Part shown: piece after piece, positions 10,807 to 63,999 of the stretch
Numbering within the stretch: the first letter of the stretch is position 1
Layout: each line of letters opens with the position of its first letter
Assembly (NCBI GenBank): GCA_049793155.1
Contig: JBARBN010000228.1
Location: 14,644 to 78,643 of the forward strand
Source of the DNA: Nitrospirota bacterium
GTDB lineage: Bacteria > Nitrospirota > UBA9217
Length of the DNA stretch: 64,000 nt
Direction of reading: 5' to 3'
Translations under genes and position numbers: made by a program
Notes under the pieces: model-generated
Databases searched by the model: none
Told to the model about the DNA's origin: nothing
What the model saw: only the letters and a program-made list of their open reading frames with translations

Positions 10807-10910
10807 GCTCTCGAAGGCCCTCGTTATAATACTGTGATTCCGTTGTTTCATCGTGATATCCACCTTAAGTCTCTTGCCCCCGTTCCAAGCTGTCGTTCTC
10901 TCGCACACTG

Positions 10911-12164: not shown

Positions 12165-12165
12165 A

Positions 12166-26867: not shown

Positions 26868-27035
26868 GGTCTTGCACCTAGGGAATGATTTGAGATTTGT
26901 ACAGACAAAGGGTGATACCGGAACGGACCATGAGGACTCGTTATGGGCTTTCCGGTCGTTGATGCTTTTTGAGCACCAACTCAGCAAAGTACCCGCATAC
27001 TCTTGCGGTGTGCGAAGCGATACCATACTATAGTC

Positions 27036-35412: not shown

Positions 35413-36456
35413 CTAAATATTTTCCGGAGCATTGATAACTGCTTTTCGCCGATAGCGGATCATGTAAATCAACAGCAGTAGAGGGAAGAGGTATTGCCCG
35501 ACTGCGATGAGGGTCAGGTCCATTGTTCTGGCGGATGTGTAATTAAAGTACGCCAGCAAAACATTGTCAATCCGGTGAAAAAGATGGATGACAAAAAGGA
35601 GCCCCAACCCCGCGGCGAGCCCCTTGATTTTCATTGCCCACGGTACTGAGCTAACAGCAAGGACCAGCGACGTAAAGATGACAATGCTGAAGGTTTCATA
35701 GTAGACGGTGGTTTCCTGCGCGAGGCCTACATGGTGATCGAAGAGAGAAAAACCCAGGACCATAAACCAATCCAGGAACCGGATATACCCGTGATGGACC
35801 TTCATCCATACAAGAAATAGACCGCTGGATATCAGCACAAAGCGTACAAAAAACCACGCTGCTTTCATGGGCATGCCCTTGTTCGACTCTTCCCGGTCGA
35901 TCCATTTCAGCCACAGGATGCAGGCCAGCAGGACAAATAACATAGTGAATACCTGGCCCAAATACACATGAAAAACCTCAAAGAGCCCCCGGTCATACCG
36001 ACTTACCATGAAGGTGAGTGCCAGCCGGAACAGGTTGCCCATATAGAGTAAGGGGATTCCCATTGCAAGACCGGTTGTCTTCTGTCGCGCCGTAGCGGGA
36101 TGAAAGATAACGAAGCTCAGGAAAAGGCCCGTTGTGAAGAGCGGAGTGCACTCGGGGATGATCTGGAACGCCAATGCGCCTTCCGATACCGTGTCGTTGA
36201 CAGTCGATGCGGGAATGCCGAAAGCATTCAGGACCAGGACCAGGGTCGCCGCAACGTGTTCGTTTATCGGCTTTGTGAAAGACGGCGGCAATGCGTTAAT
36301 GATCGCATAGATCGCAATGCAGGAAAGGGCGAACGCAGCGGCAAAGCGAAAACTACGCGACCGGATCATATTCGATATTAAAGATCCGAGAGAATCGCCT
36401 TTTTTTTCGGCGGCCTTCTGTTTCTCATGTCGATGCTTTGATTTCTGTTTTGCCAT
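35413..36456 (-). CDS. Exosortase (EpsH/Xrt family transpeptidase)
   Basis: About 8 TM helices. A conserved Cys sits in IIPECTPLFTTGLFLSF (exosortase E-C-[ST]-G/P-like motif) and Arg residues in FRLALTFMVSRYDR. It shares the window with five proteins carrying matching C-terminal sorting tails. Its start is 3 nt from the upstream stop. Confidence 0.6.
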   Translation of the reverse strand: MAKQKSKHRHEKQKAAEKKGDSLGSLISNMIRSRSFRFAAAFALSCIAIYAIINALPPSFTKPINEHVAATLVLVLNAFGIPASTVNDTVSEGALAFQIIPECTPLFTTGLFLSFVIFHPATARQKTTGLAMGIPLLYMGNLFRLALTFMVSRYDRGLFEVFHVYLGQVFTMLFVLLACILWLKWIDREESNKGMPMKAAWFFVRFVLISSGLFLVWMKVHHGYIRFLDWFMVLGFSLFDHHVGLAQETTVYYETFSIVIFTSLVLAVSSVPWAMKIKGLAAGLGLLFVIHLFHRIDNVLLAYFNYTSARTMDLTLIAVGQYLFPLLLLIYMIRYRRKAVINAPENI

Positions 36457-41400: not shown

Positions 41401-42947
41401 GCGGCAAGAATGACAAGATCGACATTATTGGGAGCATTGCGCAGCTCATTCACATAGTCGGACATATTGCACACAGCGCTGCCGCTCCATGCGCAGGGAA
41501 CGACTTCCAGGATATCGGCAAGGGTCGGCCCTATTTCCGCCGTATCGATGGTGTAGCCGATGATGCCGATCTTTTTACCATTGATCGTAACGACGTTGGA
41601 TGCGGCGAAGTACGGAAGGTGAGTATTTTTGTCCCGAACATTGACCGAAAGCACGGGTACACCGGAATTCCTGAGCGAGGTCAGATTGCTGATGTAGTTT
41701 ATATCGCGGACATCATGGTTGCCGACAACGACCGCGTCCATGCCGCGTCCGCGCTGGGCATTCAGTTTATTGGAGAGCAGGGTATAGAACATCGTCATAC
41801 TGCCATTGCCGTTCATATCGCCGATTGGGTTTCCCTCGGAGATATCACCTGCATCGATGACCAGCGAGTTCGGTTGAGCCGCGGTAAGCTGCAGCATTTC
41901 GGCGGCCAGGTAGGCCGCACCGCCTACGTCTTCAAACTGGCCGGAACCGGTCCCGTGGGCCGGGATGATCATCTTGTGCGGCGTCACCCGGGCATGGGTG
42001 TCGTTCACGTGGAAGATTGTCAAACCGGCTGAGGTCGCGGTAAAGTTCGCGGTGCAGGACTTGTTGTCCTCCATGACCACGGTGATCGTGGCGCTGCTGC
42101 TGCTCGAACAACCGCTCCACCCGCTGAACGCGGAGTTGTTCCCTGCTGTGGCGGTGATGACGGCGTTGCTCCCCGAGGTATATGGGTTGGCGACACCGGA
42201 TATGGTTCCGCTGCCGTTGCCCGCCGTGGCGGTGGTCAGCGTGTAATTCTGGGTTGCCTGGCCATCGGCAACGGTCCCCTGTATCTCAAAATCGCCGGCC
42301 GTGGTGTTGGCGACATCGAAGATATACCAGGTGCCGCTTGCTCCGCCTCCATAGTTGACTATCCGGAAGGTCACGGCCGTTCCGGCTGGAACGTTTTGTA
42401 ATGCGCTAATCGCTGAGAGGTCAATAGCTGCCAGCGAGGCCCCCGAGGACGCGCTGGAAGAATAGCCTAACGTTGTTATGTCGGCAAAAGCACCTGTCCC
42501 CACCTGGTACTGGAGAACGCCGTTTGCAGGTCCGGTTCCAGAGCGCCGGTAGTCGAATTTGCTGATCGAGCTGAACGAGACCTGCTTGCCGGTGTTAGCC
42601 GTGATCGTGAAGGAGGCAAACTTGTTGTCGGTAACGGCCGCAGCAGCATTTGCACTGTTCCAGGCAACGCCCCCCCAGGCCCGTGCGGCGCCGGAGCCGG
42701 TAATACCGACACCCGAGCCGCGGGTCAGGCCGACGACGGTCAGGTTTGGATCGCTCACCGACGCGGCCAGCGGCGAAGGCCCAAAATTATTGGTACCCCC
42801 GGGGAGGGCATGAACATCAAAGCCCGCCAGGGTGGCCGCGAAAACAGACCCGGCAACCGCCGTCAGCCCGAGGGTAATGATAAGGAAAGCAATTAAAAAT
42901 CTTTTAAGATGGGCTGCAAAGATCCGGTTGCCTGAATGCATGGTCAT
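38442..42947 (-). CDS. Giant (1501 aa) multidomain cell-surface 5'-nucleotidase/metallophosphoesterase with an exosortase sorting signal
   Basis: Signal peptide. InlB-B-repeat-like segment (TLTTATAGNGSGTISGV...AFSGWSGC). Calcineurin-like metallophosphatase motifs HVNDTHAR, DAGDISEG and GNHDVRD. DNRLRE-like domain (LYVQSAAAGYGNERGWLRFDLSAIPAGATITSANLQLW). Two MBG-like repeats. The C-terminus ...SVPALGIWGMMATVAMLAGYISRRRRHS carries the sorting tail. Confidence 0.75.
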   Translation of the reverse strand: MTMHSGNRIFAAHLKRFLIAFLIITLGLTAVAGSVFAATLAGFDVHALPGGTNNFGPSPLAASVSDPNLTVVGLTRGSGVGITGSGAARAWGGVAWNSANAAAAVTDNKFASFTITANTGKQVSFSSISKFDYRRSGTGPANGVLQYQVGTGAFADITTLGYSSSASSGASLAAIDLSAISALQNVPAGTAVTFRIVNYGGGASGTWYIFDVANTTAGDFEIQGTVADGQATQNYTLTTATAGNGSGTISGVANPYTSGSNAVITATAGNNSAFSGWSGCSSSSSATITVVMEDNKSCTANFTATSAGLTIFHVNDTHARVTPHKMIIPAHGTGSGQFEDVGGAAYLAAEMLQLTAAQPNSLVIDAGDISEGNPIGDMNGNGSMTMFYTLLSNKLNAQRGRGMDAVVVGNHDVRDINYISNLTSLRNSGVPVLSVNVRDKNTHLPYFAASNVVTINGKKIGIIGYTIDTAEIGPTLADILEVVPCAWSGSAVCNMSDYVNELRNAPNNVDLVILAAHSGHSALVDPTAPVLADNGAAKLPEVVVTGHWHTIADTVWQPEMLNYKTIFTEANSYMKYIGELQLTDTGKYFSATNHVIRDADISPDPDVQTLLNDLTTQYNNDHPGHPVDEVVGYTADDLMLDNDMKWWSADEYPWSGNNTAGQWICDAMRWKSEQLFGQTDLAIEAGGGVRADIPAGPVTYLQIYETFPWNDDSFYRVNMSGQEIVNFLKVTNMNAGFSSALDVTAYDGTPASVKFNGQPINLNQTYTVAINNYMYAHPPANWTWADTAPLTSTYLCREGIVDFMRSQHSDQANAYQVGGPRYHLNTEFSGGFRAVVTMMNDNDTKTTFEDAFIRFLSATPETLARRGSQQVPTDLVNADGTINPAHHLAEQEMYRSFLGFKTGVLKPGDIIETWGKGSFYGGNPEFVDQEGIYSDGVEFNIVGHDASLAKPAFMSSIGAFWNDQSKNHYVEFLARKAGANSVSDQNGQTITLMDATGYANKTVPGNVGDILLVSGVPTMENYGLRFRCDNVSTTNSSLPEASVVSSRVDSTPAGTTVSPITLTASASSSAGTYFLTPVADAQVASGNPTTNYGSGTNLYVQSAAAGYGNERGWLRFDLSAIPAGATITSANLQLWNWKVAGAPMPAEVRGGSDDTWTETGITWNTQPALGAAVSTQTLDSATSNIWYQWDVTSFAQTKWGGNKLISLVVKPVTESSTDATPPSYGFDAKEYGSNGPVLQINTQASGATIAQVKFYYRYSSDNTSWSAWTQFATSTTAPYTATFNYSQGYGYYEFYSQAIDSNNNVEPTPAAAQSSVHYTAAPPYTTEAIMTLGALSATFDGTAKPVSVTTIPPGLLTNVTYNGGITVPVNAGAYAVSATVAQPGYSGLAGGTYTIDKASAIVTLGTMSFTYDGSAKSVTVTTNPAGRAVTVTYNGSATAPSAMGNYTVVATISDPNYQGSAAGSMTISASQADSVPALGIWGMMATVAMLAGYISRRRRHS

Positions 42948-43683: not shown

Positions 43684-44376
43684 TTAGCTCTGTTTTCTTC
43701 TCATTTCTATCAACCCCGCGAGGCCTGAACCGAAAAGCCATACTGCGGCCGGAATCGGGGTGGCAACAGGGTTTGGATCAGGTGTGCCGGCGATAAAGAT
43801 GGTATTGCCGCCGGCATCAGTGGTACGAATGGCCGCAGTGGTAGTGCTCGGATTGGCGGTCATCCTGGGATAGAGGCTGAAGTTTGCCGTTGTTCCATAG
43901 CCGACGAGATCAACGAGGTTGGCGGACGTTGCAACGGTGCTTGCGCCGGTTGCAGTCGTATCGAACAATGCCAGCTTACCCGCGGTAGCGGACAAGTTGA
44001 GACCAGCGAAAGTACCCAGGGTCAGATCATAAGCCGGGTCGGGTGCCGTGCCGACGAGGCCCGTTCCCCGTCCTTCTTGAATGAGAAAATAGCTGTTTGG
44101 ATTGATGATACCGGACAGGTTGTGCGAGTTCGATGGGCCAAAAGTCGTTGTATTGGTAGCACTTGCATACTGGAGGCTGTAGCCGCTCAGATCGATCGCA
44201 GAAGTCCCGTCATTGTACAACTGGACCCAATCGTTGCTATACAGAGGATTAGTACTCGTTGCGCCGCCTCCCCCGTAGATCTGGCTGATGACAAGATCCG
44301 CATGGGCGGACTGGGGCGCTGCCATCAGCATTACCGTGAACATAACTGCTGTCAGTGTTAGCATTACCCTTTTCAT
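43684..44376 (-). CDS. Secreted protein with a VPLPA-type PEP-CTERM sorting signal
   Basis: Signal peptide MKRVMLTLTAVMFTVMLMAAPQSAHA. C-terminus ...VATPIPAAVWLFGSGLAGLIEMRRKQS. Confidence 0.65.
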   Translation of the reverse strand: MKRVMLTLTAVMFTVMLMAAPQSAHADLVISQIYGGGGATSTNPLYSNDWVQLYNDGTSAIDLSGYSLQYASATNTTTFGPSNSHNLSGIINPNSYFLIQEGRGTGLVGTAPDPAYDLTLGTFAGLNLSATAGKLALFDTTATGASTVATSANLVDLVGYGTTANFSLYPRMTANPSTTTAAIRTTDAGGNTIFIAGTPDPNPVATPIPAAVWLFGSGLAGLIEMRRKQS

Positions 44377-48504: not shown

Positions 48505-49629
48505 TTACAGAAAGCTCACTTTATATTTGTACCGGAACGTATCGGCAAAAATGTCCATGAGCGCCGGTCCGTTGGGATAGTATACAAAGAATAGATAAAG
48601 CACTGCCGTAGTCATCAGCAGGGTCAGGACAGGGCTCGCCCACCGAAGCGCCCGGGACCGGGTCTGCCAGAACTTTCCCTTTGTCAAAAGCATAAGCCAG
48701 AAGAGGATCGTCAGGTTGAGTCCTGCGACAATGTAGACCACCTTATCAGGGATGACGATCGGATAGCCCCCGGTCTCTATGGAATAGTACGTCGGCATTC
48801 TGACGGCACTCAGCAGCACCCACACAAGCGCCAGTATCAGGAAATAGCCGATCGAGGACCGGGTCAGCAGTTTCCAGGGCCTCATCAGCAGGGCCGCAAC
48901 CCAGAGAATCACTACGACTCCCCACGCGACCCCTGCCCAGACTGTTGTCTCTTTCCAGTGGCGGCCTGCCGCTTCGTAGGCCGCCTGGTCGCTTGAAGAG
49001 AGTGTTTTTCCGTTGTTACCGGAAATGGACTGAAAGGCGAGATAGCTTTGCCGGCTCTTGTCCATGCGGGCGTAGGCGTATCCCAATTCGCTCAGCACCT
49101 TGTCCTTTAAAATAAATTCGGGATGGGCCTTCAGCAGCGCCTCGAACTTCTGCGCCATGACTTCATCGCCCTGATCGGCGGACAGGATCGCTTGATAGGT
49201 TTTAAAAGCCTCCTCTTGGTTCATCAGCTTTTCCAGAGAAGCCAGTTTCTCCTTGTAAAAGGGGAACTGACGGGGGTCGGCATACTTCTCAAGAAATTCC
49301 CGGTCCCATTTGATAGCCTTCTTTACATCGACGAGGTTGTTTTCGTATATGGTCCCCAGCATCTGTACGGCATAACGACGCTCCTCGCTTTCAGGATGCT
49401 TCTCTGCAATTTCCCGGTTTAAGGCTGCGGCCTCGGCGTAGCGGCTGTTGATAAATGCGTGCTGGGCCTTCTTCTTCAACGCATTCACTGCCGGGCTGTC
49501 TTGGGCCGCATATCCGGCAGGCGGTAGAAGTAACAAATTTATTAGGAGCGCAAGAATAGACAAAGGAACGAGCCTGATGCGCCGGATTGCGGAAAGCGTG
49601 CGCGACGGAATAACAGTTATAATTTTCAT
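48505..49629 (-). CDS. Membrane protein with a periplasmic TPR-like domain followed by 5 TM helices
   Basis: Signal/TM, then a helical repeat region (YAEAAALNREIAEKHPESEERRYAVQMLGTIYE...), then a hydrophobic C-terminal half. Confidence 0.5.
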   Translation of the reverse strand: MKIITVIPSRTLSAIRRIRLVPLSILALLINLLLLPPAGYAAQDSPAVNALKKKAQHAFINSRYAEAAALNREIAEKHPESEERRYAVQMLGTIYENNLVDVKKAIKWDREFLEKYADPRQFPFYKEKLASLEKLMNQEEAFKTYQAILSADQGDEVMAQKFEALLKAHPEFILKDKVLSELGYAYARMDKSRQSYLAFQSISGNNGKTLSSSDQAAYEAAGRHWKETTVWAGVAWGVVVILWVAALLMRPWKLLTRSSIGYFLILALVWVLLSAVRMPTYYSIETGGYPIVIPDKVVYIVAGLNLTILFWLMLLTKGKFWQTRSRALRWASPVLTLLMTTAVLYLFFVYYPNGPALMDIFADTFRYKYKVSFL

Positions 49630-52322: not shown

Positions 52323-53015
52323 CTATTTATCGAGGTTTACAAGTTTGGGGTCCATCAACGACTTGCTATCCAGGTTTGCCCCTCTCATGTTCGCCCCATT
52401 CAGATTCGCCCTGGTCAGGTCCGTCCCGCTCAGGTTCGCCTTGCTCAGGTCCGCCTTGCTGAAGTCCGTACTGCTCACATTCGCATTACTCAAGTCCGCC
52501 TCGCTCAGGTTCGATTTGCTCAGGTCCGCCTTGCTCAAGTCCGCCTTAGTCAGGTCCGCCTTGCTCAAGTTCGCCTTACTCAGGACCGCACCGCTCAAGT
52601 TCGCTTTGCGCAAGTTCGTCCCGCTCAGGTCTTGTTCTTCCAGATTTATTCCGTTCAGGTCCGCCCCATTTAAGTCCGCTCCGCTCAGGTCCGCTCCGCT
52701 CAAGTCCGCTCCGCTCAGGTTCGCGCCGCTCAAGTCCGCCCCGCTCAGATTCGCCCCGCTCAAATCTACCTCGCTCAGTTCCGCCCCGCTCAAGTTCGTC
52801 TTGCTCAGGTCCGCCCCGTCCAAGTCCTGCCCCTTCAGGTTCACCCCGTTCAGGTCCGCTCCGCTCAGGTCGCACTGGGCGCATTGATTGGTCTCTCTTA
52901 ATCTATCCAGATCAGGCTGCGCAAAACCGTATACGACGCTGCCTGTCAGAAACACGCAAAAAAAGGTTATCCCCAGCAGTGTTGCGGTCATCCTTCTCTT
53001 CATTTTTGTCTCCAT
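52323..53015 (-). CDS. Secreted pentapeptide-repeat protein
   Basis: Signal peptide METKMKRRMTATLLGITFFCVFLTG, then about 35 consecutive A(D/N)LSG pentapeptides (DLSGADLSGANLSGADL...). Encoded by 15-bp-periodic DNA. Confidence 0.8.
   Translation of the reverse strand: METKMKRRMTATLLGITFFCVFLTGSVVYGFAQPDLDRLRETNQCAQCDLSGADLNGVNLKGQDLDGADLSKTNLSGAELSEVDLSGANLSGADLSGANLSGADLSGADLSGADLNGADLNGINLEEQDLSGTNLRKANLSGAVLSKANLSKADLTKADLSKADLSKSNLSEADLSNANVSSTDFSKADLSKANLSGTDLTRANLNGANMRGANLDSKSLMDPKLVNLDK
52380..52900 (-). repeat. 15-bp-periodic tandem DNA repeat encoding the pentapeptide repeats
   Basis: Runs of GTCCGC(C/T)CCGCTCAG variants (for example 52675-52760: gtccgctccgctcaggtccgctccgctcaagtccgctccgctcaggttcgc...). 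Confidence 0.7.
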
Positions 53016-53041
53016 GTCAACTCCGGTTCCTGGAATAAAAA

Positions 53042-53073
53042 AAAGCCCGCCACGAATGAATTCGCAGCGGGCT
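53042..53073 (-). terminator. Terminator-like hairpin plus U8 in the leader immediately before the pentapeptide-repeat gene start
   Basis: AAGCCCGC-cacgaatgaattcgca-GCGGGCTT. In the minus direction it is followed by UUUUUUUU, then about 18 nt, then the ATG. Confidence 0.45.
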
Positions 53074-53285
53074 TTAAGGTACCCCTGATAGAGGGGCCTA
53101 AAAAGTACCCAATGATTAAATGACAGCCACTTGCTGAATGGGCGAGTGTTACTTCTGATCACCCATCGTGATAAGGTAAAAAAATCAAGTCTCACACAAA
53201 ACCACAAAGTAAAGAAACTTCGTTAATCAAGAGATTATCTTTGTGATCACTATTCGAATCATTTTTTAACACATAATTATTACAA

Positions 53286-53622: not shown

Positions 53623-54312
53623 TCAACTTGGATTGCTGTCATCACTCGCCCGCTCTTCACATGCCGTGTGGCGAATGACCTTCCCTTTGACCATATACAC
53701 GACCATCTCCGCGATGTTGGTGGCATGGTCGGCAATGCGCTCAAGATACTTCGTAATGTAAGTGAGGCGAACAGCGCGTGATATGTTCTTTGGATCTTTC
53801 AGCATATACACGAGCAATTCATTGAAAATCTGATAGTTCAAATTGTCCACATAGTCATCAGACGCACACACCTTCATGGCGAGGTCGGCATCCTCTCTCA
53901 CAAAGGAATCAAGGCTGTCCTTGAGCATTGTCTGAGCCGCTTCTGCCATCCGAGGAATATCGATAAATGGCTTGAGCGGCGGTTCTTCGTTCAGCTCGAT
54001 GGCCCGCTCGCAGACGTCGACGGCCAGATCGCCCATGCGTTCGAGATCGGTGATGATCTTTATGGCGGTTGTAATCAAACGGAGCGTGCTGCCCGTGGGC
54101 TGCCAGATGGCAAGCAGTCTGATGCACTCTTCCTCGATCTCGACATCGTAATTATTGACAATGGCGTCGCCGTCGATGACCGTGATTGCCAGGTTCCGGT
54201 CCCGTTCAACCAGCGCTTTGACGGACTGCCTGATGGACTCTTCGACAAGGCCCCCCATTTTGAGGACCCGCTCCTTCAGCGCTTCAATATCCTCTTCTTT
54301 TTGTCTGGCCAT
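53623..54312 (-). CDS. phoU: Phosphate transport system regulator PhoU
   Basis: Two PhoU repeats with the conserved ...ITDLERMGDLAVD... and ...YLERIADHATNIAE... helices. Confidence 0.85.
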   Translation of the reverse strand: MARQKEEDIEALKERVLKMGGLVEESIRQSVKALVERDRNLAITVIDGDAIVNNYDVEIEEECIRLLAIWQPTGSTLRLITTAIKIITDLERMGDLAVDVCERAIELNEEPPLKPFIDIPRMAEAAQTMLKDSLDSFVREDADLAMKVCASDDYVDNLNYQIFNELLVYMLKDPKNISRAVRLTYITKYLERIADHATNIAEMVVYMVKGKVIRHTACEERASDDSNPS

Positions 54313-54405: not shown

Positions 54406-55170
54406 TTAACCGAACCTTCCCGTTATATAATCGTCGGTTTGCTTATTGTCCGGGTTCGTAAAGATCTTCTCCGTGGTCGCGTACTCGATCAGTTCGCCCA
54501 TATACAGCAGGCCTGTCATGTCCGATACGCGGGCTGCCTGCTGCATGTTGTGAGTGACGATGATGATCGTAACATCCTTTTTCAACGACACGACAAGTTC
54601 CTCGATCTTGGCCGTTGAAATCGGGTCCAGCGCCGAGGTGGGCTCATCAAAGAGGAGGACTTCCGGTTCAACGGCCAGGGCCCGTGCAATGACAAGACGC
54701 TGCTGTTGTCCTCCGGACAACTCATAGGCGCTCTCATTCAGCTTGTCCCTGACTTCCGTCCAGAGCGCCGCGTGTTTGAGCGCATCTTCGATCCGCCCGA
54801 CGAGTTCCGATTTGTTCCTGATGCCTCTCAATCTGAGTCCATATGCTATGTTCTCGGCAATGCTCATGGGAAACGGCGTCGGCTTCTGGAATACCATTCC
54901 GATTCGGCTGCGTAGATGGATGAGGTCAATGTCATGCGCCAGAATATTCTTGTCCTGGAAGTGGATCTCCCCCTCATACCGGTGTTTCGGATACAGGTCA
55001 TGCATTCGGTTAAAGCATCTGAGCAGCGTCGTTTTGCCGCAGCCGGACGGACCGATCAAGGCGGTAACCTTTTCCTTATAGATCGTCAGCGATATATTCT
55101 GAAGGGCGTGAATATCTCCGTTATAGTAAAAATCCAGGTTTTTGACCTCGATCTCTCTCGTTGCTGTCAC
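54406..55170 (-). CDS. pstB: Phosphate ABC transporter ATP-binding protein PstB
   Basis: Walker [13 protein letters not shown] signature [14 protein letters not shown], Walker [13 protein letters not shown] and a PstB-like C-terminus. Confidence 0.9.
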
Positions 55171-56009
55171 TGCTTATACCTCCACTTTAAGATGAGTCTT
55201 CCGGCAATAGTAAGCATGAGAATAAAAAGGGTTATGACCAATGCCGCGCCCCATGCCTGGGAATGCCAGCTTTTATAGGGCCCCATGGCATACTGGAAGA
55301 TAGTGACCGTCAGCGACGCGATAGGCCGGTTCATGTCCGTTGAAAAAAAATTATTGTTGAACGAGGTAAACAGGAGCGGCGCGGTTTCACCCGCGACCCG
55401 GGCGATGGACAGCAGAATACCGGTCAGTATGCCGGTGGCCGCGCCGCGGTACACGACCTGGACGATCACCTTGTAATAGGGAGCGCCGAGGGCAAACGCC
55501 GCTTCCCGCAACGTCCAGGGCACCAGTGACAGCATGTCCTCCGTTGTCCTGAGCACCACCGGGATCATGATGATCGAGAGCGCGAACGCCCCCGCCCAGC
55601 CGCTGAAATGATGGAGCGGTCTGACAAGGATCGCGTACACAAAAGCGCCGACCACAATGGAAGGAATGCTGACCATGATGTCGGAAATAATACTGATTAT
55701 CCTCGCGATCGTTCTTCCCCGGGCATACTCGGCCAGAAAGGTCCCGCCGAGAACGCCGACCGGAACCCCGATTAACGTGGCGGCCAGGGTAATCATCAGT
55801 TGCCCGATAAAAGCGTTTTTTAAGCCCCCGCCTTCAACACCTGCAGGTGCAGGATCATTGAAGAACAGGCTTAAGTGCAACGCGCCCAGGCCATGGATGA
55901 GAACGTCGGCCAGGATATACACAAGCCAGAAGAGACCCGTTGCCGCGGCAAGACCGCTCAGCGTCAGCGCGACGAAGCTCTCTATCTTTCTTTTTTTCTC
56001 GACGTTCAT
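55167..56009 (-). CDS. pstA: Phosphate ABC transporter permease PstA
   Basis: Six TM helices. EAA-like loop ...[18 protein letters not shown]. Its stop overlaps pstB. Confidence 0.85.
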
Positions 56010-56947
56010 CGTGAATACTTTCTCTCTGCCTTCAGAAGAAAGAATTTGGATATCGCAAGGATGATAAAACTCATCGCGAACAGTATGAGCGCGAGATAAA
56101 AGAGTGACGAGAGATAGAGGTCGCTGTCAGCTTCCGTAAATTCGTTCGCAAGGCTCACCGTTATGGTGGAGGCAGCGTCGAGAAGCGACGTGGCGATCTT
56201 GTGATTGTTCCCGAGCACGAAGGCTACCGCCATGGTCTCGCCCAGCGCCCGGCCCAGGGACAGTGCTACGCCCCCAAACACGCCGAGCTTAGAATAGGGA
56301 AGCACCACGTTTTTGACCACTTCCCACTGAGTCGCCCCGATAGCATAGGCCGACTCCTTGACCACGGAGGGGGTCAGATTGAATGAATCACGCGCGATGC
56401 TCGCCGTGAACGGAATGATCATAATGGCGAGGATAACACTCGCCGTCAGCAGGTCGATGCCCATGGGAGTGCCCTTGAACAGAATGCCGACGAGGGGCAG
56501 CTGTCCGATGGTGTTCTGGAGCGCTGGTTCGATATACTTAGACATGATCGGAGCAAGGGCGAACAGCCCCCACATGCCATAGATGATGCTCGGGATTGCG
56601 GCAAGTAGTTCTATTGCGATGCCGATGGGACCCTTCAGAAAATTGGGCGCGATTTCTGTGACAAAGATGGCGATACCGATGGCGGTGGGTATGGCGAAGA
56701 GCAGGGCCAGGCCGGTCGTGAGGAATGTGCCGTAAATTGTGGTTGCCGCGCCGAACATTCCGGTCACGGGATTCCACGCCGTCGAGGTCAGAAATTCAAT
56801 CAGCCCGAACTTCCCGATCGCGAGTGAGGACTCCTGCAAAAGCACGGTGATGATGCCGATAATAAAGATGATGACGGTAAAGGAGGCGATTGCAGTGAGG
56901 GAGAGAAAGAGCATCTCAGGGATGTTTTTTTTCGACAATATGGCCAA
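56006..56947 (-). CDS. pstC: Phosphate ABC transporter permease PstC
   Basis: Six TM helices. ESAYAIGATQWEVVKNVVLP loop. Its stop overlaps pstA. Confidence 0.85.
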   Translation of the reverse strand: MAILSKKNIPEMLFLSLTAIASFTVIIFIIGIITVLLQESSLAIGKFGLIEFLTSTAWNPVTGMFGAATTIYGTFLTTGLALLFAIPTAIGIAIFVTEIAPNFLKGPIGIAIELLAAIPSIIYGMWGLFALAPIMSKYIEPALQNTIGQLPLVGILFKGTPMGIDLLTASVILAIMIIPFTASIARDSFNLTPSVVKESAYAIGATQWEVVKNVVLPYSKLGVFGGVALSLGRALGETMAVAFVLGNNHKIATSLLDAASTITVSLANEFTEADSDLYLSSLFYLALILFAMSFIILAISKFFLLKAERKYSR

Positions 56948-57066: not shown

Positions 57067-58080
57067 TTACTGAATGCCGTTCGCTTTCCAGTACGCCCTA
57101 ATTTTATTCTGCAGCGATAGCGGAAGGGGAACATAAATCAGCTCTTCGGCTTTCGCCGCGCCGTTTTTAAATGCCCAGTCAAAGAATTTCACGACCTTCA
57201 CATTCGATTCCTTTTTCTCCTTAGCGAGCAGGATGAACGTAGCGCCCGCAATGGGCCACGCCTTCTTGCCCGGGGCATTGGTGAGCATGTAGTAGAAATC
57301 AATCTTCGGATCGAACGTGCCCGTGGCAGCGGCGTCTTCAAAACTGTCCGAACTCGGTGTGACGACGGCGTTGGCGGAGTTCTTAAGAAGCGTATATGCC
57401 ATATTGTTCTGTTTCGCATAGGCGAATTCCACGTACCCGATGGAGTTTGCCTGCTGCTGCACGTAATTGGCTACACCCTCGTTGCCTTTCCCGCCGATGC
57501 CGACGGGCCAGCTCACAGATGTCCCGGTCCCGACTTTTTCTTTCCACATCGGTGACACCTTGCACAGATAATCCGTAAAGATAGCGGTCGTGCCAGAACC
57601 ATCGGAGCGATGGACCACGGTAATTTCAGCCGCCGGAAGGTTGAGCTTCGGGTTCAGCGCTTTGAGTTTCGGATCGTTCCAGTTTTTTATTTCGCCCAGG
57701 TAGATTTTAGCGACCGCTTCCGAATCGAGGGTCAATTCTCCCGCCTTCACGCCGGGAATATTGACCACGAGTACGTCCGCGCCAATCACTGCCGGGAATT
57801 GGATCAGGTTGTCCTTAGCGAGCTCTTCCGGCTTCAGCGGCTTGTCCGAAGCACCGAAGTCAACCGTCCGTTCGGTGATCTGCTTGATGCCTCCGCCCGA
57901 ACCGATGGATTGATAGTTCAACTTCATTCCCGTCACCTTGTTGTATTCATTGGCCCATGCCGAGTATACGGGATAGGGAAACGTGGCGCCTGCGCCGTTC
58001 AACATCTCTTCCGCCTGCGCCATATTGAACGACAGCAGACCTATAACCACTAACGCAAAAACGAGTACACTTCTTTTCAT
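57067..58080 (-). CDS. pstS: Phosphate-binding protein PstS
   Basis: Start at MKRSVLVFALVVIGLLSFNMAQA, preceded by an AAGGAGG Shine-Dalgarno. Motifs GAGATFPYPVYSAWA, SIGSGGGI and HRSDGSGTTAIFTDYL are canonical PstS. Confidence 0.9.
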   Translation of the reverse strand: MKRSVLVFALVVIGLLSFNMAQAEEMLNGAGATFPYPVYSAWANEYNKVTGMKLNYQSIGSGGGIKQITERTVDFGASDKPLKPEELAKDNLIQFPAVIGADVLVVNIPGVKAGELTLDSEAVAKIYLGEIKNWNDPKLKALNPKLNLPAAEITVVHRSDGSGTTAIFTDYLCKVSPMWKEKVGTGTSVSWPVGIGGKGNEGVANYVQQQANSIGYVEFAYAKQNNMAYTLLKNSANAVVTPSSDSFEDAAATGTFDPKIDFYYMLTNAPGKKAWPIAGATFILLAKEKKESNVKVVKFFDWAFKNGAAKAEELIYVPLPLSLQNKIRAYWKANGIQ

Positions 58081-58129
58081 CTTTTTTTCCTCCTTAAATT
58101 TTAAATCATTGAAATAGTATGCCATGTAA

Positions 58130-58172
58130 TTGTTACAGGATTGTTACAAGTTGATTAATTTTCTGTTAAATT
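58130..58172 (-). promoter_or_regulatory. Direct-repeat array G: candidate Pho-box-type promoter of the pstSCAB-phoU operon
   Basis: TTGTTACAgga TTGTTACAagt TGATTAATttt CTGTTAAAttg is four heptamers at exact 11-bp spacing. In the minus direction it is followed after about 8 nt by a CATACTAT -10-like element, then AAGGAGG and the pstS ATG. Confidence 0.6.
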
Positions 58173-58285: not shown

Positions 58286-59452
58286 TTATTCTGCACTATA
58301 AAGGCCTCTCTGACTATTCACCTGTTGTAACGGCAGAGATACGACAAATGTCGTTCCTTTCCCATAGCTGCTTGTTAGTGAGATCGTACCGCCTAAAAGT
58401 TCCGCAAGATTCTTGCTGATCGACAGGCCAAGCCCCGTCCCGCCCTGTTCTTTGGTTTTTGCGTCCTCGATCCGGCCGTAGGTTGTAAAGAGCTTATGAA
58501 CGTCCTCTTCTTTTATCCCGACACCCGTATCGCTGATCGCGATCTCCATCCAGCTACCGATGACGGAAAGCGTGATCATGATTTTACCCTGTTCGGTGTA
58601 CTTCGCCGCATTGCTGACCAGGTTAATGAGGATCTGCCTGAGCCTGACGTTGTCCGTATTTATCATCACGGACAGTGAGGGCTCCCTGACCTCCACGCTC
58701 ACCGGCTTATTCCCGATAAGGATGCGGGCGGTTTCCGCAATTTCAGAAATGAGCAATGCTGCATTAACCATCTGATTCGCCACCCCGGCATTTAACACAA
58801 CATCGGCCGGTTCACTTATCACTGGAGCGATGTCGACGTGTTTGACGGACAGGCTTTTTCCTCTTGTTTCAAGCCGGGGCAGAGGTGTCGCGTCACGAAG
58901 CAGGCGTTCTGCATGGGAAGCGACAGTATTAATGGTCTGGAGATGTTTATTCGAGCTATCCTGTCTGAGAGCGTGTGATGAAAATCCGCCAATGACATGT
59001 ATTGAACCTTTTAATTCATGAACTAAACACTGCAGGGCCGTGTCCTGTTCCTGCTCACGGGCCATGAGCTCTTTGATCGTTTCCTGTCGGTCAATGTGTT
59101 TTTTTATCTTCAGCAGCAGTTCTTTCACGGAATATGGCTTGGAAAGGTAATCATCGGCGCCAAGGCTGAGGCCCTTGACGCGCTCCTCTTCTTCGGACAG
59201 CGCGGTCAGCATGATGATCGGCAGCGATTTTCCGTTTGTGCTCTCGCGCAAAATACGGCAAACTTCCCAGCCATTAAGCTCGGGCATCATGACATCCAGG
59301 AGGACCACATCCGGCATTTGCCGCTGCACGGCTTCTATTGCTTCCTTCCCGTTGCGCGCGATCACCGCTTCATAGTTCTCTTTTTGGAGGTTATACGTGA
59401 GGAGCTCTGCACAATCATTTTCATCTTCAACAATAAGAATTTGTTTTTTCAT
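58286..59452 (-). CDS. Hybrid response-regulator/histidine-kinase (N-terminal receiver plus HisKA plus HATPase)
   Basis: Receiver: ILIVEDE...VVLLDVMMPELNGWEV...IIMLTA. H-box LVHELKGSIH. ATPase boxes NLVSNAAKY, ISDTGVGI and GGTGLGLSISK. No TM segments. Confidence 0.8.
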   Translation of the reverse strand: MKKQILIVEDENDCAELLTYNLQKENYEAVIARNGKEAIEAVQRQMPDVVLLDVMMPELNGWEVCRILRESTNGKSLPIIMLTALSEEEERVKGLSLGADDYLSKPYSVKELLLKIKKHIDRQETIKELMAREQEQDTALQCLVHELKGSIHVIGGFSSHALRQDSSNKHLQTINTVASHAERLLRDATPLPRLETRGKSLSVKHVDIAPVISEPADVVLNAGVANQMVNAALLISEIAETARILIGNKPVSVEVREPSLSVMINTDNVRLRQILINLVSNAAKYTEQGKIMITLSVIGSWMEIAISDTGVGIKEEDVHKLFTTYGRIEDAKTKEQGGTGLGLSISKNLAELLGGTISLTSSYGKGTTFVVSLPLQQVNSQRGLYSAE

Positions 59453-59513
59453 AAAACACTGGTCCCAACCTTTGCAGGTAATTTCAATTAGCAGTCAACA
59501 CTATAACCTGATT

Positions 59514-59560
59514 CTGTTACAGGAATATGAAGCCTGCGTTAAATGTTGGTTACAATAAGA
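59514..59560 (-). promoter_or_regulatory. Direct-repeat array H upstream of the receiver/histidine-kinase hybrid gene
   Basis: CTGTTACAgga ATATGAAGcct GCGTTAAAtgt TGGTTACAata. A TATAGT -10-like element follows in the minus direction. Confidence 0.5.
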
Positions 59561-59631: not shown

Positions 59632-60483
59632 TTATGAAGAACTCTTCAGTGGTAAAGAAACGGTAACGATCGTACCCTCGCCTGTTTTACTTGCAATGGA
59701 AAGGCTGCCTCGCAGCTGCTTGATCAGTTTATTGATGATCCGGAACCCCGGACAGCGCGGCAAGGAGGCATTATTTTCAATGTCAGGCTCATGATCAGAT
59801 AACGACAGGATCGCATCGACCTGTTCCTGCGCCATCCCTTTACCGGTATCGGCAATGGTCAGTCTGACTTCATCGTTATCCTTGTTCAGGATCATTGCGA
59901 TCCTTCCCCGCTCGGTGAATGATGCCGCATTGCTCATAAGACCAGTCATGATCCGCCTGATCTTAGCAGGATCGCAATGGATGAAAAAGGGCGTTGCGAA
60001 GGCATCATCCAACACTTTTATTGGTTTGTCCCGTACCAGCGCTCGTGCGGCATGGGAGACCTCCTGCAAAAGCGCTGCGATATCGAAGTCTTGACCGGTC
60101 GTCTCGGACGGCTTGAACCCCTTGCGGGAAAATTCGGTGATCATTGAGAGTGTTGACGAGAGCGCCCCGGCCTGAAGCAAAATGATCTCAAGCCTGTTCA
60201 GAGCGCTTTCCAGTTCCCCTTTTTCGTATGCCACCCGCAGAAGTTCGGCCATGCCCAGAAGTTCATACAGCGTCGACCCTGCTTCGCGGGTAGCCTGGGC
60301 AATGACAGGCGATTGTATACCTTGAAGAGGCGAATCATCATGCATGGCCGCTGGCAGGGACCTTCCCCGTGTTCGCGGGATGGCGGGTATGTACGGTAAT
60401 AGCATTTTAACGTTTGCAACGTCATCCTGAACTGACTTCATGATCATCTCCTTTGTGATCAACCTGCATGGCATTAGCATCAT
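59632..60483 (-). CDS. Soluble histidine-kinase-like protein (HATPase_c domain; atypical or absent H-box)
   Basis: MTGLMSNAASFT (N-box), IADTGKGMAQE (G1) and GFRIINKLIKQLRGSLSIASKTGEGT (G2). No TM helix. The N-terminal region is helical. Confidence 0.6.
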   Translation of the reverse strand: MMLMPCRLITKEMIMKSVQDDVANVKMLLPYIPAIPRTRGRSLPAAMHDDSPLQGIQSPVIAQATREAGSTLYELLGMAELLRVAYEKGELESALNRLEIILLQAGALSSTLSMITEFSRKGFKPSETTGQDFDIAALLQEVSHAARALVRDKPIKVLDDAFATPFFIHCDPAKIRRIMTGLMSNAASFTERGRIAMILNKDNDEVRLTIADTGKGMAQEQVDAILSLSDHEPDIENNASLPRCPGFRIINKLIKQLRGSLSIASKTGEGTIVTVSLPLKSSS

Positions 60484-60515: not shown

Positions 60516-61658
60516 CTATTCTCCGGCAAGACCAGTAACCCGATGCGCCGTCGGTCCGGCTTGCACCGATCCGCTCTCCTGAATGACAGACAATGATTCC
60601 GGCTTCGGCCTTTTCATGATGAGGAAAAGGACCGCGGCAAGGAGCAGGAGAAAGTAAAACGTCAGAAAACGCCATCCCATGATCACCCCGCCGATAGAAT
60701 CCGCGGCGAGAAAGGGCCGGTAAAAGAGATAGAATACCGCTTCAGCGCCGCCTGCCCCTCCCGGCGTCGGAATGAACGACATGAGTGCGAACACAAGTAC
60801 CTGCAGTGACATGAAGAGGACAGGTCGTGCCGGGAGCCCGAGGCTCATGAGCAGCAGGGAAATTATGGCATACCGGCAGATCCACTGGGCAGCTGTCAAC
60901 ACAAAGGTCAGGGCAAAGACCGATTTTCCGCTGCACGTGATGGTTCTCCAGGTCAGAATAAACCTATGATATGCCGACCCTATCGTTGTTACGAAGCGAG
61001 CCGACGGCCGGAACCGCATTACGAGTGTTCGAAAGCGCGGTCGTGCCAGCACAAGGACAGCAGTGCAGGCAACCCCGCTTCCTGCAAGGAACATCCGGGG
61101 CGATGTATGGCGGATGCCGGACAGCAGACCCTGTATCACCGGCAGGTCCCAGGATGACGAAAGCGTGATGGCGAGCGGTACCATGAGGAGGAAGAACAAA
61201 CTTTCCTCCATGCTCTCGATCACGGTTAGAGACAGAGCCGCTCCGCTGGAGAGGCCTTGCTGCATCAGCATGCAGGTTTTTACAGCAGTTCCTCCGATCA
61301 TGGGCGGGCTTATAGCCGCGCCGAGCTCCGCTCCGAGCGCTATCCGAAACGTATCACGATAACGAAATCTGTTCCCAAGGAACCTGCTCCAGAGCAGCAG
61401 CCGAAGCGACCCCATAAACCAGGGGGCAATGCTCAGAAGCATGGCGATGATAATATATCCCGGTGAAAAACGGGGCACGGAGCGGAACAGAGACCCGCCG
61501 GTCGCAAGCAGAACAAAGACCACATTACCAATGACCCCGAGCGGTATGAGAAATATCAATTTTCTGAAGAGCGGATCTATCCATGACGGCTGGCGCGACA
61601 GCGTCGGCTCCATGGCATGATTGCCGGTGTCCATGGTCGCGTTACGCTCAGGCGACAA
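60516..61658 (-). CDS. UPF0104 / flippase-like (lysyl-phosphatidylglycerol-synthase TM-region-like) membrane protein
   Basis: About 8 TM helices. IPTPGGAGGAEAVFYLF matches the TPGGxGxxE signature of the LPG-synthase-TM/flippase-like domain. Confidence 0.55.
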   Translation of the reverse strand: MSPERNATMDTGNHAMEPTLSRQPSWIDPLFRKLIFLIPLGVIGNVVFVLLATGGSLFRSVPRFSPGYIIIAMLLSIAPWFMGSLRLLLWSRFLGNRFRYRDTFRIALGAELGAAISPPMIGGTAVKTCMLMQQGLSSGAALSLTVIESMEESLFFLLMVPLAITLSSSWDLPVIQGLLSGIRHTSPRMFLAGSGVACTAVLVLARPRFRTLVMRFRPSARFVTTIGSAYHRFILTWRTITCSGKSVFALTFVLTAAQWICRYAIISLLLMSLGLPARPVLFMSLQVLVFALMSFIPTPGGAGGAEAVFYLFYRPFLAADSIGGVIMGWRFLTFYFLLLLAAVLFLIMKRPKPESLSVIQESGSVQAGPTAHRVTGLAGE

Positions 61659-63495
61659 GACGGTCCCGTTTCATTGCTTCATGATGGTCAAGAAACATGC
61701 GGGCACCGTCCTTGCCAAGGTACCGATCCAGTATTCGCGGTTCAGTTTTCGTCAGGTCGACGATGATCAGGCCATCAACAACATTTCCGAATGCGGTATC
61801 GACATTAAAACCTGCGATCTCGCCACCCAGCTTGAGATATTGCTTCAGCAGGATCGGGACGCCTTTGCGGTCTGATTCCACGCAGGAGATCAACTCCGAT
61901 ATGTTCTCCACGTCGTCCTTCAGAAGCCGCACTGCGGCATCGATGTCCCAGCCTTTTAGTGGTTTTACCGGTAAGGGTTTTTTCGGTTTGACGAAGCCGG
62001 CCATATCACTGCGGTACCTGGTCATTTTCAGGTAACTGACCAGAAATTGCCTCGACAGCGACCGGTACTCATCACTGATGCTTACGGGACCAAAGAGGGT
62101 TTTATATTGCGGGTTTTCGACAACGAATCTGCCGATGCCTTTCCAGAGGAGCAGGAGAGGTGCGAAGGATTTTTGGTATTCCAGCCGGATAAAGGACCGT
62201 CCCATTTCCAGGGCAGGCCCCATCTGTTCGAAAAATTCTGGTTTGTAACGAAATAGGGAACTCGTGTAAAGGCCGCTCACTCCCTTTTGTCTGATGATCT
62301 CATCGGCCTTGCCGAGGCGATAGGCGCCGACCACTTCTTTTTTTAACCGATTCCATATAAAAAGATGGAGATAGGAGCTATCGAACCGGTCAATATCAAC
62401 GGCCTTTCCCGTCCCCTCGCCCACGGTACGGAAGGTGACCTCCCGCAGCCTGCCGATCTCGAGCAGGAGGTGAGGTATCTGGTCAGTCGTCGCCTGAATC
62501 ACGGCATGCTCGTTGCTCTCAACGAGCGTCTGGCTCGGCATCAGCCTGCGAATCTCCTCGGCCATGACATCCGGGTTCTGGGGTGGCATGATCTCGCCGA
62601 AGGCCTCGGTTTTTGCCTTTCGAATAAATGCCCCAATGCTGGGCACTTCTTCTTTATCGCCGCGATACTCCAGTATATAAGTGCGCAACCGCAGGTACGC
62701 AGTCATGTCGTCATCTTGGTCAAAGGACTCCAACTTGCCAATTGGCACAAGATCTCCGACGCGCACCTGAATCTTTCTGCTGTTCTTGTTAAACAGTTCA
62801 TTCGGCAGCATGGCCGTGCGAAGAACAGGATGTACCATGCCCGCTATATGAAATGCCGCGCTGTTCGTCCCTTGAAAGAACACCGGAAGCACCGGCACCC
62901 CGGTTTTCCTGATAATGCGCGCTATGCTCGGGCTCCATTCAGGATCGGTGATCGTACCTTTCCGGGCATCAAAGTGAGAAACCGCGCCCGCGGGAAAGAC
63001 CACGAGCATGCCGCCGTTCCTGACCCATTGGATGGCTTCTCTGAGCGGCCTGATGTTGTCGCGGACCGAAGTCTTTCCCGGAAAAGGGTTCACGGATATC
63101 AATAGGTCCCGTATTTCCGGTATCGCGTTCAACAGAGAATTGGCCATGAACTTGACATCGCAGCGCATCGAACGCAGGATCGAAGCAAGGATAACGGTTT
63201 CGATGAGCCCAAAGGGATGATTTGCCACAACGATCACCGGACCTTTGGGGATCATGATCCGCGAGAGGTCCTCTTCAGGAATATCGTAGAGCACGCCCAA
63301 TCGATCTAAGACCTTGTCCGAGAACGGACGGTTGTCAGGCATCCTGCTTACGTCATCGTAGAAAAGGTTCAATCGCTGCAAGCCAATAGCATGTTCAATC
63401 GGCCCCTTTACCAGCGAAAAAAGTCTGTTCTGCAACGGGCCTCTGAAAGCAAGGTTGAGGTTGAAGATCCGGGTTGTCTGTACTTGATCCATCAT
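61648..63495 (-). CDS. Bifunctional acyltransferase, OlsF-like: N-terminal PlsC/AGPAT-like O-acyltransferase plus C-terminal OlsB/GNAT-like N-acyltransferase (candidate ornithine or other amino-lipid synthase)
   Basis: N-domain VVANHPFGLIETVIL (H-x4-D/E box) and LVVFPAGAVS (FPEGT-like box). The C-domain of about 300 aa is hemolysin/GNAT-fold-like (YLHLFIWNRLKKEVVGAYRLG...). Its stop overlaps the start of the downstream flippase-like gene. Confidence 0.5.
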   Translation of the reverse strand: MMDQVQTTRIFNLNLAFRGPLQNRLFSLVKGPIEHAIGLQRLNLFYDDVSRMPDNRPFSDKVLDRLGVLYDIPEEDLSRIMIPKGPVIVVANHPFGLIETVILASILRSMRCDVKFMANSLLNAIPEIRDLLISVNPFPGKTSVRDNIRPLREAIQWVRNGGMLVVFPAGAVSHFDARKGTITDPEWSPSIARIIRKTGVPVLPVFFQGTNSAAFHIAGMVHPVLRTAMLPNELFNKNSRKIQVRVGDLVPIGKLESFDQDDDMTAYLRLRTYILEYRGDKEEVPSIGAFIRKAKTEAFGEIMPPQNPDVMAEEIRRLMPSQTLVESNEHAVIQATTDQIPHLLLEIGRLREVTFRTVGEGTGKAVDIDRFDSSYLHLFIWNRLKKEVVGAYRLGKADEIIRQKGVSGLYTSSLFRYKPEFFEQMGPALEMGRSFIRLEYQKSFAPLLLLWKGIGRFVVENPQYKTLFGPVSISDEYRSLSRQFLVSYLKMTRYRSDMAGFVKPKKPLPVKPLKGWDIDAAVRLLKDDVENISELISCVESDRKGVPILLKQYLKLGGEIAGFNVDTAFGNVVDGLIIVDLTKTEPRILDRYLGKDGARMFLDHHEAMKRDRLVA

Positions 63496-63501: not shown

Positions 63502-63999
63502 TTACCCCCTCCGACTACCTGATGCCTCGTTCCGTAGTTCATTCCGTCCGATTAAATCGTTGCAGCAATCTACTTCCCTCCCATCGAGAGCCCGGTGAAG
63601 TGCCCCGAACAGCTCTTCGCGGGTGAACGGTTTTGTCAGTTTTCCTATAAAACCGTAATCCCTGAAGTTCGTTAATGCCGGATCGAGAATGTCGCCGCTC
63701 GAAACAATGACCTTCACATCAGGGTCGAGTTCAAGCAGGCCTTTGATCGTTTCCTTGCCGCCCTTGCCAAGCGGGACGTTCAGATCCACGATCACTGCAT
63801 CATAGGGACAACCGGCCTCTTTTGCTTTTCGATAACACTCGATCGCTTCTTCGCCGTTTTCCATCACCTGTACCGCATATCCTTTTTTTTCGAGAGCGCG
63901 CTGAGTAACTGACCTCAGCAATTCTTCATCTTCCATCAAAAGGACTTTTCGTCTATTCTGCCCCACCGTTCCCCCTACCTTGACTGTTCCCTCCATCAT
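63502..63999 (-). CDS. Response-regulator receiver protein (the start may lie at or beyond the window edge)
   Basis: KVLLMEDEELL...DAVIVDLNVPLGKGGKET...KVIVSSG. Confidence 0.6.
   Translation of the reverse strand: MMEGTVKVGGTVGQNRRKVLLMEDEELLRSVTQRALEKKGYAVQVMENGEEAIECYRKAKEAGCPYDAVIVDLNVPLGKGGKETIKGLLELDPDVKVIVSSGDILDPALTNFRDYGFIGKLTKPFTREELFGALHRALDGREVDCCNDLIGRNELRNEASGSRRG

Follow-up and report, generated by a model that had tools for sequence, protein, structure and literature searches.

Introduction

OlsF enzymes carry out both acylations of ornithine-lipid synthesis in one polypeptide: the C-terminal domain performs the N-acylation and the N-terminal domain the O-acylation (PMC12971839). 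OlsF is Pho-regulated in Serratia and Vibrio, and the Flavobacterium enzyme yields lysine lipid besides ornithine lipid (PMC12971839). An olsF mutant of Desulfovibrio alaskensis is devoid of ornithine lipid, and its growth at low phosphate is poor (PMC5193443). A 2026 review that enumerates the OlsF-bearing orders does not mention Nitrospirota, nor does it mention a flippase or transporter for ornithine lipids (PMC12971839). Here we analyzed a 64-kb stretch (64,000 nucleotides, the window) of contig JBARBN010000228.1 from a Nitrospirota bacterium, which encodes, next to the pst genes, an OlsF-like protein followed directly by a flippase-like membrane protein of the UPF0104 family.

Flippase activity is established for the transmembrane domain of MprF (as background in PMC12713373). 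Stand-alone UPF0104 proteins encoded in gpgSDF of Pseudomonas aeruginosa and hexSDF of Clostridioides difficile have been proposed to be flippases, without direct proof; these proteins, GpgF and HexF, accompany synthases of amine-bearing lipids (PMC12713373). We found no report in the literature searched of a pairing between OlsF and a UPF0104 protein.

Results

An OlsF-type synthase in the Nitrospirota

A first-pass annotation, made from the sequence without database searches, had placed two open reading frames (ORFs) of interest near the end of the window. Both were recovered there, on the minus strand:

61648..63495, minus strand: OlsF-like bifunctional acyltransferase, 615 aa (Pfam and NCBIfam matches)
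60516..61658, minus strand: MprF-type flippase-like membrane protein, 372–380 aa (PF03706 and TIGR00374)

Three Pfam domains were found in the 615-aa protein above their gathering cut-offs: Acyltransf_2 (aa 75–277, 56 bits), Acyltransferase (aa 82–207, 39 bits), and Acetyltransf_5 (aa 350–451, 83 bits). These matches confirmed that a PlsC-like O-acyltransferase is joined to an OlsB-like N-acyltransferase, as first proposed. Of the 570 positions in the NCBIfam model for OlsF, the protein spans 30–569 (E 1e-117, 394 bits), in agreement with the bifunctional ornithine-lipid-synthase layout that had been read from it. In a sequence search of the PDB, the sole match of the N-terminal domain was PlsC (5kym, E 4e-6).

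We also scored the protein against models of the half-sized enzymes. The GlsA model matched the N-terminal domain (87 bits, cut-off 260), while the GlsB (139 bits, cut-off 300) and OlsB (51 bits, cut-off 350) models matched the C-terminal domain; together with Acetyltransf_5, these are the N-acyltransferase matches on which the first-pass annotation had staked its reading. The OlsB/OlsA and GlsB/GlsA pathways use the same two-step chemistry. In the window protein, unlike in those pathways, both activities are fused, and the scores fall far under those models' cut-offs.

The sequence motifs of the family are intact. The HPFGLIE and VFPAGA strings are both present, E99 lies within HPFGLIE, and the acyltransferase block pattern NHP[FY]G...[DE] is found with its catalytic histidine. 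All 35 invariant columns of a 42-homologue alignment, N92-H93-P94 among them, are kept. A hydropathy scan detected no strong transmembrane segment, a result compatible with lipid synthesis at the cytoplasmic face.

Homologues are numerous (7845 at E≤1e-10 in 90% clusters; 1752 at E≤1e-30 in 50% clusters). The closest, at 95% identity, belongs to a 90% cluster that includes a protein named from a Nitrospirota metagenome-assembled genome (MAG), and further homologues at 56–71% identity are also labelled Nitrospirota. Homologues from other phyla share 37–50% identity with the window protein. OlsF of Serratia proteamaculans, Flavobacterium johnsoniae, Vibrio cholerae (VC0489), and D. alaskensis (Dde_3661) is the same two-domain polypeptide of ∼600 aa. 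The window protein differs from these known enzymes in its Nitrospirota host and in scoring below the cut-off of the OlsF equivalog model NF052615 (394 versus 620 bits). We rejected this cut-off as a decisive membership criterion: ten of ten diverse bifunctional homologues (from Desulfovibrio, Desulfocurvus, Bacteroidota, Gammaproteobacteria, Kiritimatiellia, Terriglobia, Methylacidiphilum, and Phycisphaeraceae MAGs) likewise scored only 359–419 bits. Because all of them fall below it, the cut-off seems to isolate a narrow subgroup and to say little about function. Taken together, the domain layout and the full-length model alignment identify the 615-aa protein as a predicted bifunctional synthase of the OlsF family, a new member in a phylum unlisted for OlsF.

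The head group of the product cannot be read from the sequence, and ornithine cannot be deduced, because the OlsF of Flavobacterium forms lysine lipids as well as ornithine lipids. A different head group, such as lysine, glycine, serine-glycine, or glutamine, would fit the low equivalog score, the GlsB match of the C-terminal domain at 139 bits, and the distance from homologues of other phyla, as well as the view that OlsB/OlsF homologues may use other amino acids (PMC12971839). We consider it rather doubtful, since no other model matched nearly as well as that of OlsF (394 bits versus 139 for GlsB and 51 for OlsB) and all the cited fused enzymes that have been tested by experiment produce ornithine lipid (PMC12971839, PMC5193443).

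The neighboring gene encodes a protein with a predicted MprF-like fold

The 380-aa form of the flippase-like protein matched LPG_synthase_TM (PF03706) over residues 40–340 (100 bits, cut-off 33.4) and the TIGR00374 "flippase-like" model (93 bits, cut-off 43.2). An AlphaFold model built on 48 homologues was all-helical, with about 14 helices (pLDDT 79, pTM 0.72), and a hydropathy scan agreed that the protein is polytopic. When this model was compared with the PDB by Foldseek, the top six matches were all MprF (probability 1.0, E 3e-6 to 1e-3, TMq 0.45–0.51) and the next match had an E of 0.06; a sequence-only search of the PDB returned nothing. Thus, the UPF0104 identity given in the first-pass annotation stands, and we consider the product of 60516..61658 to be a membrane protein with a predicted MprF-like fold and a putative flippase.

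Like MprF, GpgF, and HexF, this protein belongs to the PF03706 family and shares the MprF transmembrane fold, and its gene directly follows that of a predicted cytoplasmic synthase of an amine-bearing lipid. Unlike MprF, it has no aminoacyl-phosphatidylglycerol (PG) synthase domain, and unlike all three, its partner is an OlsF-type acyltransferase instead of a glycosyltransferase or a tRNA-dependent synthase. It scored 74 bits on the GpgF equivalog model NF053789, under the cut-off of 320. No GT4 or deacetylase gene of the kind found in gpgSDF-type operons lies beside it; its neighbors are OlsF and, in relatives, a GT21 glycosyltransferase.

The flippase-like gene has two candidate starts, a TTG at 61658 and an ATG at 61634. 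The ATG lies 13 nt past the OlsF stop and is the start called in 95%-identical relatives, while in more distant relatives the OlsF/flippase overlap is called as 17 nt. The two genes are therefore tightly packed under every start choice. The overlap described in the first-pass annotation, 11 nt long, holds only with the TTG start.

The synthase gene lies in a predicted operon that continues beyond the window

The neighbors of the two genes all lie on the same strand. They include two-component genes and pstSCAB-phoU downstream, where Pfam agreed with the first-pass annotation:

63502..63999, minus strand: response regulator, stand-alone REC (Pfam Response_reg, 62 bits)
59632..60483, minus strand: kinase-like soluble protein, 283 aa (HATPase_c, 54 bits)
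59512..59555, minus strand: Pho-box-like array of four 11-bp units, TTGTAACCAAC ATTTAACGCAG GCTTCATATTC CTGTAACAGAA, upstream of the REC-kinase gene
58286..59452, minus strand: REC and histidine-kinase hybrid, 388 aa, cytoplasmic (Response_reg, 103 bits; HATPase_c, 108 bits)
58128..58171, minus strand: Pho-box-like array of four 11-bp units, ATTTAACAGAA AATTAATCAAC TTGTAACAATC CTGTAACAATT, upstream of pstS
57067..58125, minus strand: pstS, phosphate-binding protein (PBP_like_2, 125 bits)
56006..56947, minus strand: pstC (BPD_transp_1)
55167..56009, minus strand: pstA (BPD_transp_1)
54406..55170, minus strand: pstB (ABC_tran, 118 bits)
53623..54312, minus strand: phoU (PhoU, 159 bits)

We compared the window with the loci of relatives, labelled L001–L102; coordinates without such a label are those of the window. 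A metagenome scan for loci returned eight. L102 is collinear with the window (89% DNA identity, 95% protein identity for OlsF and the flippase-like protein) and displays the complete operon. An exact look-up of the window's OlsF protein in an assembly index gave no record; L102 and L004, both close relatives, stand in for it and for the operon parts beyond the window. In these loci, genes for a 230-aa PHP-domain phosphoesterase and a 412-aa GT21 glycosyltransferase stand at the head of the operon (2003–3987 of L004 and 7501–9482 of L102); in the window, the two genes would lie just beyond position 64000. The best named match of the GT21 protein was HpnI, below cut-off. The last ∼65 nt of the window, which are also the first ∼65 nt of the response-regulator ORF, align to the spacer between GT21 and the response regulator in L004, and GT21 of L102 ends 4–5 nt past the window end. 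The window therefore cuts the operon, leaving its promoter and first two genes outside.

The core order in this clade is PHP - GT21 - [REC] - OlsF - [flippase] - kinase-like - REC-kinase - ... - pstSCAB-phoU. The receiver-only response regulator, which probably starts at the ATG at 63936 and whose gene lies 6 nt upstream of olsF, was found between GT21 and olsF in the closest relatives only (the window, L004 at 4055–4441, and L102 at 9550–9936); it is absent from this position in L001, L003, L085, L086, and L097. A 10-nt indel alters its C-terminus in the window relative to L004. The 283-aa kinase-like gene lies 3' of OlsF or the flippase-like gene in L001, L003, L085, L086, L089–L091, L094, L096, L097, and L102. 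Its product showed no HisKA match in Pfam, no transmembrane segment, and no obvious H-box histidine; it could represent either a pseudo-kinase or a partner of the neighboring REC-kinase hybrid, which contains an H-box-like VHELKGS. In pstS, a signal-peptide-like sequence begins at residue 16, and M16 (MKRSVLVF, about 58080) is probably the start.

Scans for terminators and sigma-70 promoters over 53000–64000 gave no excess over shuffle expectation and did not define the operon boundaries. A strong terminator-like hairpin (53042–53075, minus strand, 15 pairs followed by a T run) was seen within the 5' part of 52323..53207, a 294-aa pentapeptide-repeat ORF listed with a TTG start. Translation of this gene probably begins further downstream, and it is probably the pst-phoU transcript that the hairpin ends.

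This arrangement resembles a known form of lipid remodelling. In alphaproteobacteria, including SAR11, phosphate stress triggers PlcP-Agt lipid remodelling; Agt is cited in PMC5193443. Here too, a phosphoesterase gene is followed by a GT21 lipid glycosyltransferase gene, is headed by a Pho-box-like array, and stands alongside aminolipid synthesis. Unlike in PlcP-Agt, a PHP-domain phosphoesterase replaces the PlcP-type metallophosphoesterase, and both genes lie outside the window. The longer operon, with PHP, GT21, REC, and flippase-like genes, also sets the window gene apart from known olsF genes, whose products are characterized while that of the window is predicted. We found no description in the literature searched of a PHP-GT21-OlsF-UPF0104 operon under a shared Pho box. 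This design is apparently an undescribed variant, and its flippase pairing is possibly novel.

Pho-box-like arrays point to a link between the operon and phosphate

In the arrays, a CTGTAACA-like unit recurs two to four times as a direct repeat with a period of 11 bp, and a TATAAT-like hexamer comes next. This repeat layout is that of the PhoB/PhoP boxes, as in the Escherichia coli and Bacillus subtilis consensus. We trained a position weight matrix (PWM) solely on the arrays found upstream of PHP in three relatives and ran it on the window. The best score was obtained directly upstream of pstS (31.3 at 58128–58171), followed by 30.8 at 49671–49714, 27.9 at 59512–59555 (upstream of the REC-kinase gene), and 26.6 at 28215–28258. 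Four further minus-strand arrays scored 20–21 (44550–44593, 27034–27077, 32554–32597, and 37986–38029). All eight arrays exceeded the shuffle maximum (18.3 in 100 shuffles), a null of mononucleotide shuffles that does not capture AT-rich spacers, and all eight lie on the coding strand. The dimer TGTAAYA-N4-YGTAAYA, with one mismatch allowed, occurs three times in the window versus 0.04 expected.

The reciprocal experiment gave the same picture: with a window-trained PWM, the top hits in relatives lay immediately before PHP, before pstS, and before the REC-kinase gene. The pstS array is conserved in L003, L085, L086, L090, L092, L094, L096, and L102, and the REC-kinase array in L089–L092 and L102. 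Arrays directly upstream of PHP were present in the ten relatives in which this region was available, several of them near-identical (L001, L003, L004, L085, L086, L091–L094, and L102); L102 has two. The window-trained PWM found no array between PHP and the REC-kinase gene in those relatives. The phosphate link proposed in the first-pass annotation is thus strengthened by the arrays before pstS and before the REC-kinase gene in the window, and before the OlsF operon in close relatives; judged from near-identical relatives, phosphate regulation of olsF is a well-supported prediction. A predicted phosphate-starvation context, with a Pho-box-like array before the operon in relatives, also likens this gene to olsF of Serratia and Vibrio (PMC12971839) and D. 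alaskensis (PMC5193443).

Could the proximity to pst be coincidental, the aminolipid genes being constitutive or responding to temperature, pH, or salinity? In several bacteria, stresses of other kinds also affect OlsF and ornithine lipids (PMC12971839), the cluster of L001 is not beside pst, and the window does not hold the operon's promoter. Against this, in all relatives examined, L001 included, one and the same type of array stands before pstS and before the PHP-GT21-OlsF operon. Moreover, genes for PsiE, a phosphodiesterase, metallophosphoesterases, and a phosphate-selective porin, besides GH1, are carried by the relatives' clusters, and the phosphate-related ones travel with the operon. 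A coincidental association therefore appears highly improbable.

The flippase-like gene is a lineage-restricted partner of olsF

We wondered how constant the pairing is. The flippase-like gene lies directly 3' of OlsF in about 11 of 15 related loci: the arrangement was seen in the window, L001, L003, L004, L089, L092–L096, L097, and L102. In L097 (OlsF 56% and flippase 46% identical), PHP has moved and the OlsF-flippase junction is kept, with a 17-nt overlap. The clusters of L086, L090, and L091 lack the gene. In L085, it has moved to a place upstream of PHP, where it follows a phosphodiesterase gene that has a separate array.

To place the pairing in a wider context, we searched 80 OlsF-like loci of other phyla (37–50% identity; a sample, not a census, with no Nitrospirota among them). 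No UPF0104 gene was found within 8 kb in any of the 80, either by phmmer or with a hidden Markov model built from 110 flippase homologues (best E 0.76). Distant homologues of the flippase-like protein occur beside a GT4 glycosyltransferase in L088 and in unrelated contexts in L098 and L100. Because the gene adjoins olsF in about 11 of 15 related loci and in none of the 80 others, the flippase-like protein is best read as a lineage-restricted accessory, preferentially but not obligatorily joined to olsF, and not as a general OlsF partner. In this Nitrospirota-type clade, its gene always lies in a Pho cluster with a GT21 lipid glycosyltransferase.

A UPF0104 protein might act as a membrane scaffold or an activator of the soluble synthase and not as a transporter. 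No stand-alone UPF0104 protein has shown flippase activity, a gpgF mutant still makes glucosaminyl-PG (GlcN-PG), at a lower level (PMC12713373), and the TM-score to MprF is only 0.45–0.51. By contrast, the fold match is exclusive to MprF, whose transmembrane domain is an established flippase, and L090 and L091 keep an intact OlsF (82% identical to that of the window) without the flippase-like gene, which shows that it is not needed as a general scaffold. We regard a scaffold role as improbable.

The substrate is harder to assign. The flippase-like protein could serve the GT21 glycolipid, or both lipids, and not the aminolipid specifically. GT21 and OlsF are always together in the cluster, so that co-occurrence cannot separate the two substrates; in L085, the flippase-like gene no longer adjoins OlsF and is found two genes upstream of GT21; in L088, the homologue (43% identical) directly follows the GT4 gene; and the stand-alone partners GpgF and HexF accompany glycosyltransferases (PMC12713373). 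Yet, in 11–12 loci the start of the flippase-like gene abuts or overlaps the OlsF stop and not GT21, a junction that survives both the PHP rearrangement and the response-regulator insertion. A softer argument comes from general knowledge: the substrates of MprF, GpgF, and HexF carry a free amine, as does ornithine lipid, and the products of Agt-type GT21 enzymes, monoglucosyldiacylglycerol (MGDG) and glucuronic acid diacylglycerol (GADG), do not. The glycolipid alternative is conceivable, though we give it a minor share of the probability. Because the flippase-like gene usually lies directly after olsF and often overlaps it, the aminolipid is the more likely substrate.

A candidate Pho regulon in the rest of the window

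Phosphate-scavenging genes behind arrays of this kind abound elsewhere in the window, which there resembles a Pho island. Three scavenging enzymes are encoded:

36459..37859, minus strand: AcpA-type acid phosphatase (TIGR03397, 467 bits, cut-off 363)
38442..42947, minus strand: metallophosphoesterase/5'-nucleotidase with CBM96 and MBG domains, 1501 aa
50422..52179, minus strand: purple-acid-phosphatase-like protein

We tried 36459..37859 (PF04185) as a phospholipase C that could supply diacylglycerol and rejected it: the phospholipase C model scored 146 bits, below cut-off, and the AcpA-type model 467 bits, above it. This gene follows the array at 37986–38029, and an exosortase XrtH-like gene (35413..36456) adjoins it.

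Other arrays precede genes of more varied kinds: the array at 49671–49714 lies before a 374-aa ORF without Pfam match (48505..49629), that at 28215–28258 before a 295-aa ORF (27204..28091), that at 44550–44593 before a lamin-tail-domain protein (43684..44376), and that at 27034–27077 before a NusG paralogue (26364..27026, minus strand). Together, the six arrays other than those of pstS and the REC-kinase gene suggest a candidate Pho regulon of the lineage.

The NusG paralogue lies upstream of a two-partner secretion (TPS) pair within 13998..25993 (minus strand), with a 126-aa ORF in between. The pair consists of a 533-aa ShlB/FhaC-type transporter and a 3464-aa TPS/filamentous-haemagglutinin-like exoprotein; given the array before the NusG paralogue, this giant adhesin may be phosphate-regulated. 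An outer-membrane uptake cluster adjoins the TPS genes (9202..13989, minus strand) and encodes a putative Porin_5 porin, TonB, ExbD, and ExbB fused to DUF2341 and Laminin_G domains.

Discussion

Taken together, these results make it likely that the locus encodes an OlsF-type synthase in a Pho-headed operon, with a putative flippase that would move a new lipid outward. Domain content, fold, gene order with its conservation, and motif arrays are what the analysis shows; from these, we infer the enzyme products, their head group, binding by the regulator, co-transcription, and the activity and substrate of the flippase-like protein, as follows. The C-terminal OlsB-like domain would N-acylate an amino acid, most likely ornithine but possibly lysine or another, with a 3-hydroxy fatty acid; the N-terminal PlsC-like domain would then esterify a second fatty acid onto the 3-hydroxyl. 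The predicted product is a phosphorus-free acyloxyacyl aminolipid at the cytoplasmic face of the inner membrane. The olsF gene would be expressed from the Pho-box-headed operon PHP - GT21 - REC - OlsF - flippase-like - kinase-like, which directly precedes the REC-kinase gene and pstSCAB-phoU, both of which have Pho-box-like arrays of their own. From this layout of operon and pst arrays, the cell under phosphate limitation would turn on phosphate uptake and replace phospholipids by the aminolipid and probably a glycolipid. The co-transcribed MprF-like protein would most likely move one of the new lipids to the outer leaflet.

Several points weigh against this scheme. The synthase scores below the equivalog cut-off, and its sequence does not fix the head group. 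The flippase-like gene is missing or displaced in some relatives and was not found beside the sampled OlsF-like genes of other phyla. The arrays were judged against simple shuffles, and the operon's promoter and first two genes are visible in relatives and not in the window. Finally, our literature search found no link between ornithine lipids and Nitrospirota, nor lipid data for the lineage.

The replacement of phospholipids by ornithine lipids and glycolipids is a major phosphorus economy of bacteria. A phosphate-saving module at this locus is thus largely expected, and the reading of the first-pass annotation is supported. While the synthase and its regulation are unsurprising, the possible aminolipid flippase is the unusual feature, tempered by the ambiguity of its substrate and its patchy distribution. 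We tentatively propose that the UPF0104 protein whose gene follows olsF serves as a dedicated flippase for an ornithine-type aminolipid and is the first candidate for the outer-leaflet step, although we hold this narrower proposal to be far from assured. Relatives with and without the flippase-like gene offer a natural comparison for this first aminolipid flippase candidate. If the proposal is true, the MprF-type logic of synthase plus flippase would be widened from aminoacyl-PG and aminoglycolipids to acyloxyacyl aminolipids.

For the organisms themselves, the locus extends OlsF-type synthesis to uncultured Nitrospirota and provides a candidate Pho-box consensus and regulon for them. In environmental lipid records, anaerobic Nitrospirota would be a predicted source of aminolipids.

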